Of a stretch of DNA of 64,000 bases, positions 21,501-26,681 are shown piece after piece. The DNA comes from Escherichia coli O157:H7 (GTDB taxonomy: Bacteria > Pseudomonadota > Gammaproteobacteria > Enterobacterales > Enterobacteriaceae). The stretch lies in NCBI RefSeq assembly GCF_013167455.1, contig NZ_CP038328.1, one strand, 5' to 3'. The position numbers are program-made. Each line of letters begins with the position of its first letter. Positions within the stretch are counted from its first letter, which is position 1.

Positions 21501-24500
21501 CGCCTCGCTAAGTTTGCTTTCCAGCTCTTGCGGATGAGAGATCTGGATCCCGACGTGACCATAGGCTTCCGCCAGACGGACGAAGTCTGGTAAAGACTGC
21601 ATATAAGATTGTGAATGACGACCGGAATAGATCATGTCCTGCCACTGCTTCACCATCCCCAAATAGCGGTTATTAAGATTAACCACCAGCACCGGCAGTT
21701 CATATTGCAACGCTGTAGACAGTTCCTGAATGTTCATCTGAATACTGCCGTCGCCAGTGACGCAAACCACGGTTTCTTCTGGCAGCGCCATTTTGACGCC
21801 CAGTGCCGCAGGTAAACCAAAGCCCATAGTGCCGAGGCCACCGGAGTTGATCCAACGACGGGGTTTGTCGAATGGATAATAAAGCGCAGCAAACATCTGG
21901 TGCTGCCCGACATCGGACGTAACGTAAGCGCCCCCCTTCGTCAACCGCCAAAGAGTCTCGATCACCGCCTGCGGTTTAATCTTTTCACTGTGAGTGTCAT
22001 ATTTCAGGCACTGACGAGCGCGCCACTGTTCAATCTGCTGCCACCAGTCGCGGATCTCATCCAGCGGTTGATGGGCGGATTCTTGCGACAAGAGTTCAAG
22101 CATTTGTTCGAGGACCTGGCGAGCATCCCCCACAATCGGAATATCCGCAGTCACGGTTTTAGAAATGGAAGTAGGATCAATATCGATATGCAGAACAGTG
22201 GCATTTGGGCAGTACTTTGCCAGATTGTTAGTGGTGCGATCGTCAAAGCGGACACCGACAGCAAAAATCACATCCGCGTTATGCATCGTCATATTGGCTT
22301 CGTAGGTACCGTGCATTCCCAGCATGCCCAGTGCCTGACGATGCGTTGCCGGAAACGCTCCCAGCCCCATCAATGAGGAAACAACGGGCAGATTTAACGC
22401 CTCCACCGTTTCTTTCAGCTGTTGATGGCAGCCCGCCGTGATTGCCCCACCGCCTACGTAGACAACCGGTTTTTTTGCCGCCACCAGCGTTTGCAGAGCG
22501 CGCTTAATTTGCCCTTTATGTCCGGTAGTAGTGGGATTGTAAGAACGCATACTGACCGACTCCGGCCAGACATAGGGTAATTTGTTCGCCGGATTAAGAA
22601 TATCTTTCGGTAAATCAACGACCACTGGTCCTGGGCGACCACTTGCCGCCAGCCAGAAAGCCTTTTTCAGCACCTGCGGAATGTCTTCCGTTTGCTTAAC
22701 CAGAAAACTGTGTTTAACCACCGGTCGCGAAATCCCCACCATGTCGCACTCCTGAAAGGCATCGTAACCTATCAACGAGGTCGCTACCTGCCCGGAAAGG
22801 ACAACTAATGGAATGGAATCCATATAAGCGGTGGCGATGCCGGTAATCGCATTGGTCGCCCCTGGACCCGACGTTACCAGCACGACGCCGACTTCCCCGG
22901 TCGCGCGCGCCAGACCATCGGCCATATGCACTGCCGCCTGCTCATGACGAACTAAAACATGACCGATACCACCCACGGTATGCAATGCATCGTAAATATC
23001 AAGGACTGCGCCTCCGGGATAACCGAATACTTGTTTAACGCCCTGATCGATAAGCGATCGGACGACCATCTCGGCTCCAGACAACATCTCCATGGCCTGC
23101 CTCACTGTTTGACGGAAAAAATGTGTAAAACACATTAACCGTCCGATCTTGCTTAAGCAATTGGCAGCCAGAGACATAAACGCCGGGTAATAAGAATAAA
23201 CAGGAGGAAAGGTGAAAAGAAACGATAAAATCCTCCATTACGAAGGATAAAAATGATAATAAATCGGCTAAATCCCACCACTTACAGCAATTTCTCTATT
23301 TTTTTAATTAATCCTAAAATAGAGAGCCCACACATTCAGAATAAAATTCTACACTCAATAAAAAATGCAGAATAAACCAGACATTCATGTCTGACCTATT
23401 CTGCATTCAGTTAGCGTTTGCAAATTGAGACTAATTGCTCTTCCATCCACTGATGGCCTTTATCACGCCCGGCAGCTTCATGCCAGGAGAGATAACAGGT
23501 TCTGCTATTTAGTTTTAACGGCAGCGGTAATACCTGTAATTCTAAGGATTCAGCGAACTCTTCAGCCAGCCAACGCGGCGCAATAGCGACCAAATGCGTT
23601 TGCGACACCACGCTAAGTACGCTCATCATTGCCATGCCCTGATACGCGATACTGGCTTGCTTATCTACCGTGTCATACCAAGGTTGACTAAATGACGCGA
23701 AACGATCGAGCGAAACCGCCGCATGTTGTTCGTTATAAACATCATGTTTCAGTAACGGGCCCTTAATTGTTGGGTGATTTTTGCTGGCTACCAGCACCAT
23801 TTCATCTTTAAATAATGGCACGCTGGTAAATTCAGGACGATGGAAGTCTTCATAACTAATCACAAACTCCGTTTCCTGATAACGCAGCTGATGTTCAGTG
23901 TTCTGATTTAATGAAGACTTGAACATAACATGTATATTTGGCGCAATCTGCTCAATGTGATTATAAATCTGCGAGGTCAGAATACTGTCTAACGGGCTGC
24001 AAACACAAAGATGAAATACACGTTCACTGCTCGCGGGTTCAAAACCTGAACCAGGCAATTCATTTTGTACTAGTTGCAATGCCTGACGAACTGAACCAAA
24101 AAGTTGAAATGCGCGAGCAGTCGGTTGAATACCACGGCCATAACGAACAAAAAGCTCGTCATTAAACATCACCTTCAGGCGTGCAACAGCGTTACTGACC
24201 GCAGGTTGCGACATTCCCAGAACATGAGCAGCACGGGTAATGTTTTGCTCCTGCATCACGGCATCGAAAACGGTTAATAAGTTGAGATCGACCATGCGTA
24301 GCTGTGGCTTGCTGAACTCCGCCGTCTCTGGATGATCTGTTTGTACCTCTGGCATACTTAACTCCACTGTCACACTTAACTCCCTTTCCCTTATTGGAAT
24401 GCAGAGAAATAATCCTCGAGAATATGATTTATCATGCATATAAAATAAGAAAAAGGAAAATGAGTAAAATTAGGAAAACATAAAGATACGGGTTCTTATA

Positions 24501-26681
24501 AAAACAGAATCCATTGCCGTGGAAAGCGTCATTTACCACAGCATAATAATCCATAATGTTCTTGTTGCGTAAACAATCTAATCATAACTACCGCGAATAC
24601 TCAATCATCCACAAAATGGATTAAATGTGCTTTTTAATAATTTATTTATATATTTAATGCATTAATTCTTAACATTAATTGATCAATAATATTCACCAAA
24701 TCAATATCAAAAAATCCGCAAAACATATAATTCAATACAAATCATCAGGATAGGTTTTGCAACGCGTGCATTTTGTCCCCTTTTTCCTCGTGGATTAGAT
24801 GCAAAAATTTATTCTGAAATATGTCAACCGATGAAAAGCATCGGTAGTTAAGCAGAAATTAATATCGCTTGTTTTAACCACAGCAGCACAATTAGCTAAT
24901 CTTACGGATGCAGAACTCATGCTGGCGGGACGTTTTTATTGCGTCAGGGTTGACATCCGTTTTTGTATCCAGTAACTCTAAAAGCATATCGCATTCATCT
25001 GGAGCTGATTTAATGACTCACATCGTTCGCTTTATCGGTCTACTACTACTAAACGCATCTTCTTTGCGCGGTAGACGAGTGAGCGGCATCCAGCATTAAG
25101 CCAGCACGCAGTCAAACAAAAAACCCGCGCCATTGCGCGGGTTTTTTTATGCCCGAAGCGAGGCGCTCTAAAAGAGACAAGGACCCAAACCATGAGCCAG
25201 CAAGTCATTATTTTCGATACCACATTGCGCGACGGTGAACAGGCGTTACAGGCAAGCTTGAGTGTGAAAGAAAAACTGCAAATTGCGCTGGCCCTTGAGC
25301 GTATGGGTGTTGACGTGATGGAAGTCGGGTTCCCCGTCTCTTCGCCGGGTGATTTTGAATCAGTGCAAACCATCGCTCGCCAGGTTAAAAACAGCCGTGT
25401 ATGCGCGTTAGCTCGCTGCGTGGAGAAAGATATCGACGTGGCGGCCGAATCCCTGAAAGTCGCCGAAGCCTTCCGTATTCATACCTTTATTGCCACTTCG
25501 CCAATGCACATCGCCACCAAGCTGCGCAGCACGCTGGACGAGGTGATCGAACGCGCTATCTATATGGTGAAACGCGCCCGTAATTACACCGATGATGTTG
25601 AATTTTCTTGCGAAGATGCCGGGCGTACACCCATTGCCGATCTGGCGCGAGTGGTCGAAGCGGCGATTAATGCCGGTGCCACCACCATCAACATTCCGGA
25701 CACCGTGGGCTACACCATGCCGTTTGAGTTCGCCGGAATCATTAGCGGCCTGTATGAACGCGTGCCTAACATCGACAAAGCCATTATTTCCGTACATACC
25801 CACGACGATTTGGGCCTGGCGGTCGGCAACTCACTGGCGGCGGTACATGCCGGTGCACGCCAGGTGGAAGGTGCAATGAACGGGATCGGCGAGCGTGCCG
25901 GTAACTGTTCCCTGGAAGAAGTCATCATGGCGATTAAAGTTCGTAAGGATATTCTCAACGTCCACACCGCCATTAATCACCAGGAGATATGGCGCACCAG
26001 CCAGTTAGTTAGCCAGATTTGTAATATGCCGATCCCGGCAAACAAAGCCATTGTTGGCAGCGGCGCATTCGCACACTCCTCCGGTATCCACCAGGATGGC
26101 GTGCTGAAAAACCGCGAAAACTACGAAATCATGACACCAGAATCTATTGGTCTGAACCAAATCCAGCTGAATCTGACCTCTCGTTCGGGGCGTGCGGCGG
26201 TGAAACATCGCATGGATGAGATGGGGTATAAAGAAAGTGAATATAATTTAGACAATTTGTACGACGCCTTCCTCAAGCTGGCGGACAAAAAAGGTCAGGT
26301 GTTTGATTACGATCTGGAGGCGCTGGCCTTCATCGGTAAGCAGCAAGAAGAGCCGGAGCATTTCCGTCTGGATTACTTCAGCGTGCAGTCTGGCTCTAAC
26401 GATATCGCCACCGCCGCCGTCAAACTGGCCTGCGGCGAAGAAGTCAAAGCAGAAGCCGCCAACGGTAACGGTCCGGTCGATGCCGTCTATCAGGCGATTA
26501 ACCGCATCACTGACTATAACGTCGAACTGGTGAAATACAGCCTGACCGCCAAAGGTCACGGTAAAGATGCGCTGGGTCAGGTGGATATTGTCGCCAACTA
26601 CAACGGTCGCCGCTTCCACGGCGTCGGCCTGGCCACCGATATTGTCGAGTCCTCCGCCAAAGCCATGGTGCACGTACTTAA

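Follow-up and report, generated by a model that had tools for sequence, protein, structure and literature searches.

The leuO-leuL divergent intergenic region of Escherichia coli O157:H7: a conserved, AT-rich control region of the H-NS-silenced type

The locus and its boundaries

The DNA analysed here, referred to as the window, is a stretch of 64,000 nucleotides from E. coli O157:H7 (contig NZ_CP038328.1) and contains the complete divergent intergenic region that separates leuO from leuL at 24356-25012 (657 bp, 33.2% G+C), hereafter the spacer. Its left boundary is set by the leuO CDS (23411-24355, minus strand), which encodes a LysR-type regulator annotated as 314 aa (WP_001302209.1), and on the other side lie leuL (25013-25099, plus strand), encoding a 28-residue leader peptide, and leuA. 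The limits of the coding sequences were taken from open reading frames (ORFs) in the window and from the annotation that RefSeq gives for an O157:H7 record of identical sequence, and the spacer is 100% identical to NZ_AP018488.1. The right boundary is further defined by the leucine operon leader/attenuator (24999-25148, plus strand), which was recognised as Rfam RF00512 (Leu_leader) at 145.8 bits, the gathering score of the family being 50. A divergent leuO/leu-leader spacer had been proposed in the original prediction, and with ORFs, Rfam and annotation in agreement it proved exact to the base. Aligned with E. coli K-12, the spacer was ~97% identical from end to end. What was determined in this study is its anatomy, base composition, orthology and conservation; protein binding and repression are taken from the literature on K-12, ETEC, EHEC and Salmonella.

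Base composition, the AT core and H-NS

The G+C content of the spacer compares with 52.9% for the whole window. Equally low G+C is found in only 0.06% of all windows of 657 bp, every one of which overlaps the leuO-leuL locus, and the next-lowest trough elsewhere is at 39.3%. Of the 28 intergenic regions annotated in the 64 kb with a length of 40 bp or more, none is longer (601 bp for the second) or more AT-rich than the spacer, which has 2.2 times the window average of TpA steps and 3.2 times that of A/T tracts of four or more. The description of a long, extremely AT-rich region of ~650 bp was therefore accurate. The AT-rich 50-mer quoted in support of it does occur once, although its strand had to be corrected to minus (24618-24667). 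The end of the spacer that carries the leuL promoter is less AT-rich (42-46% G+C). No trustworthy dominant 10-11 bp peak of AA/TT helical periodicity was found in the spacer, and its repeats were short families only, probably due to chance, with the exception of an 18-bp-spaced repeat of ACTTAACTCC beside leuO.

The most extreme composition is found in an AT core at 24606-24705 (19% G+C), which includes a stretch of 28 bp (24631-24658) made up of A and T only, longer than any other in the window. The sequence TCGATAAATT, which we take to be the published high-affinity H-NS motif and presumably not obligatory for H-NS-silenced DNA, had no match in the spacer at up to one mismatch, and the two matches at up to two mismatches were no enrichment over dinucleotide shuffles (2.14 +/- 1.43), so that the signal is one of composition and not of motif. 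It is likely that the AT core acts as the H-NS nucleation and filament core.

Much of the spacer corresponds to a 'promoter island' of K-12 (leuL/leuO, 83898, 426 bp), the orthologue of which was placed at 24400-24823 by way of the K-12 alignment. The K-12 island was H-NS-bound in all three ChIP studies (PMC3661553 Table 1), and binding at the locus is recorded in the Grainger, Kahramanoglou and Oshima data sets (PMC3661553; PMC5797941). A two-hexamer promoter scan of 2.2 kb found two sites, one of them in the spacer, compared with 5.2 in shuffled sequence; the island was defined with a different algorithm. Two overlapping SlyA-type TTAN6TAA sites lie on the minus strand at 24646-24665 (TTAATGCATTAA, 24654-24665; TTAAATATATAA, 24646-24657), identical in sequence to the sites predicted 305 and 297 bp upstream of leuO, and the fragment used for SlyA EMSA in the same study (primers TC51/TC52) corresponds to 24356-24698 of the window (PMC5797941). 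The expectation that this is an H-NS-type silencing region thus holds by way of composition and the published data on the 97%-identical K-12 orthologue. Both support the view that the O157:H7 spacer would likewise be H-NS/StpA-silenced regulatory DNA.

Elements on the leuO side

The leuO translation initiation region (24356-24385, minus strand) was recognised by its conservation and by a direct repeat of ACTTAACTCC with a spacing of 18 bp, which on the leuO strand reads GGAGTTAAGT-GTG...GGAGTTAAGT-ATG. An in-frame GTG with its own Shine-Dalgarno sequence, AAGGGAG, is present at 24371-24373, 18 nt upstream of the annotated leuO ATG. This block was without variation in 11 E. coli strains and was the best conserved of all across 20 genera. 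An in-frame start codon (GTG, ATG or TTG) occupied the position of the upstream GTG in 68 of 81 sequences, AAGGGAG preceding it in most, and the downstream ATG was absent from some Kluyvera and Enterobacter species; in strain 0H15 one unit of the repeat is deleted. From these sequence features it appears that translation of LeuO may start, solely or additionally, at the upstream GTG, in which case the protein would have 320 aa and the N-terminus MTVELS.

The proximal leuO promoter block (24420-24449, minus strand), with a conservation of 0.86 across 21 genera, reads CTTATTTTATATGCATGATAAATCATATTC on the leuO strand. It is probably the core of the leuO promoter P2, and on our placement of the -10, the -35 and the start of transcription (TSS) the last of these would fall near 24396-24415. 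The reporter-fusion oligonucleotide T585 (PMC5025477) ends at 24395 of the window and retains the block.

A motif for BglJ-RcsB, wwTTCykA, has been described ~70 bp upstream of P2 (PMC3950696). The half-site TTTTCCTA (24471-24478, minus strand) matches it and lies within a block, 24466-24487, that is conserved across genera. The sole polymorphism in TTTTCCTA, both in the E. coli panel and across genera, is T/G on the leuO strand at 24472, which is the degenerate k position. It is put forward as a candidate BglJ-RcsB box; a text search of the literature for the K-12 RcsB-box sequence gave no relevant match.

Elements on the leuL side

The core promoter of leuLABCD (24950-24986, plus strand) consists of a -35 hexamer TTGACA (24950-24955), a 17-bp spacer and a -10 hexamer TAACTC (24973-24978), with the TSS near 24986; hexamers and TSS were placed according to what we take to be the leu/leu-500 promoter. 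A simple promoter scan misses it because the -10 hexamer lacks the final T. TTGACA was invariant or nearly so across genera, the block 24966-25004 had a conservation of 0.88 across genera, and there was nearly no variation in the core promoter within E. coli.

Further upstream a block at 24883-24900 was detected through its conservation across ~20 genera and was found to contain a marbox, a site for MarA, SoxS and Rob (GCACAATTAGCTAAT, 24886-24900, plus strand), with one exact match in the window. In ETEC H10407 the same 15-mer was identified by ChIP-seq as the leuL<>leuO site of MarA, and its binding in vitro was scored as +++ (PMC5684230). It is near-identical to the Salmonella site GCACAATTAGCTAAA, which is bound by MarA, Rob and SoxS (PMC10268841). 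The distance from the marbox to the leuL TSS downstream of it, ~93 bp, is unusually long for a classical MarA-activated promoter.

Variation within E. coli

The original prediction had named the region as a likely site of strain-specific regulatory variation while also expecting it to be conserved, and it was the latter view that was borne out. The spacer was found in 5,399 of 5,426 E. coli genomes, a number equal to that carrying leuA, and was uninterrupted and in one place in 5,378 of the 5,399 (~99.5%; coverage of at least 80%). In a panel of 11 strains its length was 657-661 bp and its G+C 32-34%. Nucleotide diversity (pi) in this panel was 0.033 for the spacer and lower for whole coding sequences (0.017-0.023), but at third codon positions it reached 0.040 in leuO and 0.066 in leuA, both above the spacer. 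The identity bands across genomes were similar to the bands obtained with an equally long segment of leuA. Structural variants were rare, comprising IS1 events and one 18-bp deletion among the matches listed; IS-disrupted alleles are bounded, and not exactly counted, by the split or partial matches (at most ~0.5% of the 5,399 genomes) together with IS1 insertions that were still joined. Two substitutions, at 24561 and 24570, were confined within the panel to the O157 window, and the O157-specific substitutions fall outside the conserved blocks. Stable length and a diversity below that of third codon positions in alignment with other E. coli thus argue against a hotspot of strain variation.

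It was also considered whether an unannotated small protein or sRNA gene accounts for the length of the spacer. There are nine ORFs of 20-41 aa in it, six of them intact in 11/11 E. coli strains, and the K-12 region, besides being called a promoter island, binds RNA polymerase holoenzyme in vitro. However, almost all DNA variants in each ORF alter the peptide, and the ORFs thus bear no sign of purifying selection; the stretches that contain them are the least conserved between genera, Rfam gives only the Leu leader even at E values up to 1, and no feature is annotated in the spacer by RefSeq in either K-12 or O157. A hidden gene was considered the least probable of the explanations weighed here.

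Conservation across the Enterobacteriaceae

For comparison across the family 80 species loci were used, the window and 79 others, kept from 412 relatives and including the genera Escherichia, Salmonella, Citrobacter, Enterobacter, Klebsiella, Kluyvera, Kosakonia and Atlantibacter. The order leuA-leuL-spacer-leuO was found in 79 of the 80 and the ilvI side of the locus is also kept across the family. This is difficult to reconcile with the proposal that the spacer and leuO are a remnant of horizontally acquired DNA, silenced by H-NS as foreign. Such an origin might be read from GIST, in which the K-12 interval overlaps a 'genomic island', and from one codon-based method that calls it foreign (PMC3661553 Table 1; PMC5797941 Table 2), and the coding sequence of leuO, too, has more A+T than the genome (0.42-0.54 G+C). 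There is, however, no patchy distribution, the spacer being as widespread in E. coli as leuA, and the genomic island reading was rejected on the family-wide synteny. Any acquisition would predate the Enterobacteriaceae and the region is therefore core DNA in practice; an origin as foreign DNA was judged very improbable. It is very probable that the spacer is an ancestral, core-genome regulatory region between two divergent units of the Enterobacteriaceae, of which the leuO side is silenced by H-NS/StpA.

The spacer was 600-665 bp long in 75 of the 79 other species (76 of 80 with the window), with a median length of 633 bp and a median G+C of 0.344, and sequence identity to E. coli across genera was only 42-64%. 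In 76 species two AT troughs were found at fixed distances from leuO, at ~60-120 and 240-340 bp, the second of which, counted from the ATG, overlies the AT core. Five blocks were conserved, namely the leuL core promoter, the marbox, the RcsB-type box, the proximal leuO promoter and the leuO translation start, and these match published or expected sites.

The low identity raises the question of whether the spacer is no more than unconstrained non-coding DNA that has drifted neutrally towards AT, with no function beyond two core promoters. In keeping with drift, its rate of evolution within E. coli is 50-80% of that at third codon positions, and TCGATAAATT does not rise above composition. Several observations are hard to explain in this way. 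Other intergenic regions of the window have 36-58% G+C, none as low as 33%, and all are shorter. Spacer length has a coefficient of variation of 0.051 (0.024 without four outliers) compared with 0.131 for the leuO-ilvI spacer of the same species, and the AT troughs keep constant distances from leuO in 76 sequences. Internal conserved blocks coincide with published protein sites, and published genetics shows H-NS repression (PMC10981669; PMC5025477). Neutral drift was thus regarded as extremely improbable, slightly more so than horizontal origin, and the ancestral regulatory region is retained as the preferred reading.

Length and AT profile are held in 76 species while identity falls to 42-64%, which is the reason for suggesting that the geometry of the spacer is under selection. 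As a tentative extension, possible though on balance doubtful, the geometry (~630 bp and the trough positions) may have been selected while most of the sequence has not, and/or LeuO may have its start at the upstream GTG. If geometry is selected, the fixed length could set the end of an H-NS filament or bridge and the supercoiling coupling of the leuL and leuO promoters. Both the geometry and the GTG-start readings go beyond the published accounts found.

Published regulation and a model for the region

Both leuO promoters of K-12, P1 and P2, are repressed by H-NS and StpA (PMC5025477; PMC3950696), and activation by BglJ-RcsB as well as autoregulation by LeuO has been reported (PMC5025477; PMC3950696; PMC6698644). 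In Salmonella leuO was described as 'under strong repression by H-NS', with >10-fold relief by upstream transcription (PMC10981669), and in EHEC Pch, Ler and Lrp bind upstream of leuO (PMC4332760).

In the model that these accounts suggest, the leuLABCD side has a strong sigma-70 promoter with the leucine attenuator behind it, and on the other side is leuO, encoding a LysR-type antagonist of H-NS. H-NS and StpA would coat the AT-rich DNA of the spacer (33% G+C, core 19%) and so keep leuO P1 and P2 off in ordinary growth, with the leuL promoter, at the less AT-rich end (42-46% G+C), remaining active. Site-specific proteins would lift the silencing locally, their sites being the conserved islands of the spacer: BglJ-RcsB at the RcsB-type box that precedes P2 on its upstream side, LeuO itself, SlyA within the AT core and MarA/SoxS/Rob at the marbox, with Pch, Ler and Lrp as additional relievers in EHEC. 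Transcription-driven supercoiling from neighbouring promoters, the 'promoter relay', would offer a second route of relief. For P2, the RcsB box and the nucleation core the positions given are, in their exact form, those that we infer.

LeuO is a pleiotropic H-NS antagonist that controls CRISPR-cas, drug efflux, bgl and, in EHEC, the LEE virulence genes, and the switch that silences leuO is biologically important for this reason. It is also already among the better-studied H-NS targets.

Comparison with known systems

The closest system is the orthologous leuL-leuO region of K-12 (NC_000913.3, 83709-84367; promoters P1/P2), which has the same flanking genes. The K-12 spacer has 659 bp and 32.9% G+C and is separated from that of the window by 19 substitutions and two indels of a single base. 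No difference affects the marbox, the SlyA sites, the core promoter of leuL or the proximal leuO block, and one substitution falls in the candidate RcsB box, at the degenerate position 24472. Unlike K-12, EHEC has extra, horizontally acquired regulators, Pch and Ler, that act on the spacer (PMC4332760). The spacer is the known, well-studied H-NS-silenced leuO-leuL control region and in that sense ordinary; the window brings no new element to the leuO switch, and its O157:H7 copy has all published sites intact.

The 'promoter relay' region of Salmonella Typhimurium, ilvIH-leuO-leuABCD, with its AT-rich H-NS silencer, shares the gene order and the silencing of leuO by H-NS. Spacers of S. enterica subspecies are of 645-655 bp and 33-34% G+C, with AT troughs and marbox as in the window, but the Salmonella spacer is only 61% identical to that of E. 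coli, and it was in Salmonella that the 72-bp silencer element and the LeuO sites were defined.

More distant parallels are bgl, casA/cas3 and yjjQ-bglJ, which are likewise AT-rich regulatory DNA to which H-NS/StpA bind and on which LeuO, BglJ-RcsB or SlyA act as counter-silencers; casA/cas3, like leuL/leuO, is also a promoter island. The leuO spacer differs from all three in that the silenced gene itself encodes the anti-silencer. A biosynthetic operon that is actively expressed uses the region too, so that silencing of leuO must end before the leuL promoter.

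Anatomy and composition of the leuO-leuL spacer

The spacer at 24356-25012 was proposed in the original prediction as the divergent leuO/leu leader intergenic region. These limits are exact and take in the entire 657 bp, since leuO (23411-24355, minus strand) extends up to 24355 and leuL, encoding the leu leader peptide (25013-25099, plus strand), begins at 25013; both genes are supported by their ORFs and RefSeq annotation. The plus-strand leuA follows 3' of leuL from 25192, and the Rfam Leu_leader family matches 24999-25148 (145.8 bits). The window is from E. coli O157:H7, and spacer and flanks are 100% identical to NZ_AP018488.1, with orientation reversed relative to K-12. 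The 50-mer quoted to illustrate the A/T tracts is genuine sequence, but it reads from the minus strand (24618-24667).

The composition of the spacer exceeds chance. Its G+C content is 33.2% vs 52.9% for the whole window, the minimum among all 657-bp windows in a 64-kb scan, in which the next trough elsewhere was 39.3%. When the 28 annotated intergenic regions of ≥40 bp in the window are ranked, it comes first for both length and AT-richness, the others ranging from 36% to 58% G+C. An AT core (24606-24705) has 19% G+C and includes a 28-bp run of A/T only, the longest within the 64 kb, while TpA steps and A/T tracts are enriched 2.2-fold and 3.2-fold in the spacer. The published H-NS high-affinity motif was not enriched in the spacer above the level set by composition, which makes only nucleation from a discrete motif less likely. 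A gene hidden within the spacer is unsupported, as its small ORFs carry no peptide-level constraint; an Rfam search of the spacer gave no match besides the Leu leader.

For comparison only, the 601-bp cra-mraZ spacer upstream of the dcw cluster (19090-19690, 42.6% G+C) ranks second in length among the intergenic regions here. The leuO-ilvI spacer (23094-23410, 317 bp) is also AT-rich at 36% G+C. Directly 3' of leuO is a strong terminator-like hairpin of 20 pairs (23363-23408, minus strand), and the tiny yabR ORF, 45 nt in K-12, is here a 39-nt annotated pseudogene ('too short') at approximately 23212-23250.

Variation among strains

Among 5,426 complete E. coli genomes, 5,399 had the spacer, a count equal to that of leuA, and in 5,378 it lay in a single place at a coverage of at least 80%. 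Identity to the O157 sequence was at least 99% in 354 genomes, 95-99% in 4,628, 90-95% in 411 and 80-90% in six; a leuA segment of equal length gave a similar distribution (bands of 479, 4,758 and 162 genomes). In 11 strains picked across the ranking, length was 657-661 bp and G+C 32.4-34.2%. Nucleotide diversity (pi) in these strains was 0.033 for the spacer, 0.017 and 0.023 for the whole CDS of leuO and leuA, and 0.040 and 0.066 for their third codon positions, so that the spacer changes at a somewhat lower rate than synonymous-like sites. There was almost no variation in the 50 bp adjoining leuO or in the leuL core promoter. In a further spread sample, 58 of 60 genomes had uninterrupted copies of 857-861 bp (query 857 bp). 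On these figures the expectation that the region would be a likely site of strain-specific variation largely fails.

Three structural variants were seen, two IS1 events and one 18-bp deletion. BKQ37E (NZ_CP170328.1) carries an inserted IS1 that duplicated its target at 24401-24409, 46-54 bp upstream of the leuO ATG, and sits between the ribosome-binding site and a conserved promoter block. In the O157-like FDAARGOS_943 (NZ_CP065615.1) an IS1-flanked deletion of 23189-24851 has taken leuO together with 496 bp of spacer sequence, leaving 161 bp upstream of leuL. Both events should leave leuO severed from its normal control or absent.

O157:H7 PV15-279 is collinear with the window apart from a 1,313-bp insertion at approximately 32,600, missing from the window, which is a copy of IS1203 (IS3 family) interrupting the T3SS effector gene espY2. 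There is an extra 1-bp offset near 49,200, and a few SNPs occur, the first at 8667; the window therefore derives from another O157:H7 isolate.

Conservation across the Enterobacteriaceae

A scan of species genomes with LeuO gave 80 loci, from Escherichia to Atlantibacter, kept from 412 relatives found. The arrangement leuA-leuL-spacer-leuO was retained in 79 of the 80, and this synteny across the family contradicts horizontal acquisition of the spacer. Median length was 633 bp (600-665 bp in 75/79), with a coefficient of variation of 0.051, or 0.024 minus four outliers, vs 0.131 for the leuO-ilvI spacer of the same genomes. Median G+C was 0.344, and the mean profile dips twice, in each case at a fixed distance from the leuO ATG (roughly 60-120 and 240-340 bp). 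At the nucleotide level the spacers share only 42-64% identity with E. coli. Conservation of length, AT profile and internal footprints alike contradicts neutral AT drift; the family-wide conservation of the first two is a mildly new point.

Five blocks were picked out from a 21-genus alignment. The first (24358-24376) is the leuO translation initiation region and the second (24420-24449) a proximal leuO promoter block, which is retained by a published reporter-fusion oligo ending at 24395. The third (24469-24485) is a candidate BglJ-RcsB box containing TTTTCCTA on the leuO strand, which fits the published core wwTTCykA with its sole polymorphism at the degenerate k position. The fifth (24966-25004) covers the leuL -10 region and 5' UTR. 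A TTGACA at 24950-24955, which we take to be the -35 of the leuL promoter, is invariant or nearly so. The fourth block (24883-24900) was first picked up from conservation alone and matched to a MarA site afterwards: GCACAATTAGCTAAT, at 24886-24900, is the exact MarA ChIP-seq site at leuL<>leuO in ETEC H10407, with strong binding in vitro (PMC5684230), and is near-identical to the MarA/Rob/SoxS site of Salmonella (PMC10268841). That the footprints agree with published sites is likewise mildly new. The window has a single copy of this 15-mer marbox; the inferred leuL TSS is ~93 bp downstream of it and the proximal promoter of leuO ~480 bp away.

The start of LeuO

The annotated leuO ATG has an in-frame RTG 18 nt upstream of it, here a GTG (24371-24373, minus strand) just preceded by its own Shine-Dalgarno sequence, AAGGGAG. 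At this position 81 sequences include 57 GTG, 10 ATG and one TTG, all in frame. The annotated ATG is missing in some Kluyvera and Enterobacter species, which have no in-frame ATG or a GTG instead. Because RTG and AAGGGAG are conserved in the family and the ATG is absent from some species, LeuO may start, or additionally start, at the upstream GTG, predicting 320 aa beginning MTVELS; this conserved codon with its Shine-Dalgarno sequence is another mildly new point. The leader (24356-24383) consists of an 18-bp unit imperfectly duplicated in tandem, GGAGTTAAGTGTGACAGT / GGAGTTAAGTATGCCAGA, and the 18-bp deletion in 0H15 (NZ_CP081677.1) removes one repeat unit next to the ATG, leaving a single SD-start module.

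Regulation and comparison with known orthologues

H-NS and StpA would coat the AT-rich spacer and silence leuO P1 and P2. The leuL promoter, in the flank with the lower AT content (42-46% G+C), would stay active; leuO would be opened by site-specific anti-silencers and by supercoiling from neighbouring transcription. Anatomy, composition, orthology and conservation are those observed here, and protein binding and repression come from published work on orthologues. We infer the exact position of P2, the RcsB-box assignment and the AT core as nucleation site.

For Salmonella, H-NS is reported to repress leuO strongly, and transcription started 427 bp upstream lifts the silencing >10-fold via supercoiling (PMC10981669), a result that extends earlier 'promoter relay' and AT-rich silencer studies, which PMC4264507 cites. 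The region upstream of the leuO promoter in EHEC is bound by Pch, Ler and Lrp, according to a review citing Takao 2014 (PMC4332760). SlyA binds a leuO-upstream fragment whose primers correspond to 24356-24698, with predicted TTAN6TAA sites at 24654-24665 and 24646-24657 (PMC5797941). H-NS and StpA repress both P1 and P2, BglJ-RcsB activates P2 from a site ~70 bp upstream, and the autoregulatory LeuO sites are >100 bp from that site (PMC5025477; PMC3950696; PMC6698644).

The K-12 orthologue (83709-84367, 659 bp) is ~97% identical to the O157:H7 spacer and has been written about extensively. It figures in the list of 'promoter islands' of E. coli (83898, 426 bp), corresponding to 24400-24823, and H-NS binding is recorded for it in each of the three ChIP data sets under comparison, those of Grainger, Kahramanoglou and Oshima (PMC3661553); the same G, K and O annotation is given in PMC5797941. 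The H-NS-type silencing first proposed from sequence is thus correct, given published binding and repression in K-12 and Salmonella together with composition. The spacer is confirmed as an already known feature, its identity and silencing rightly read and marked strain variation wrongly expected.
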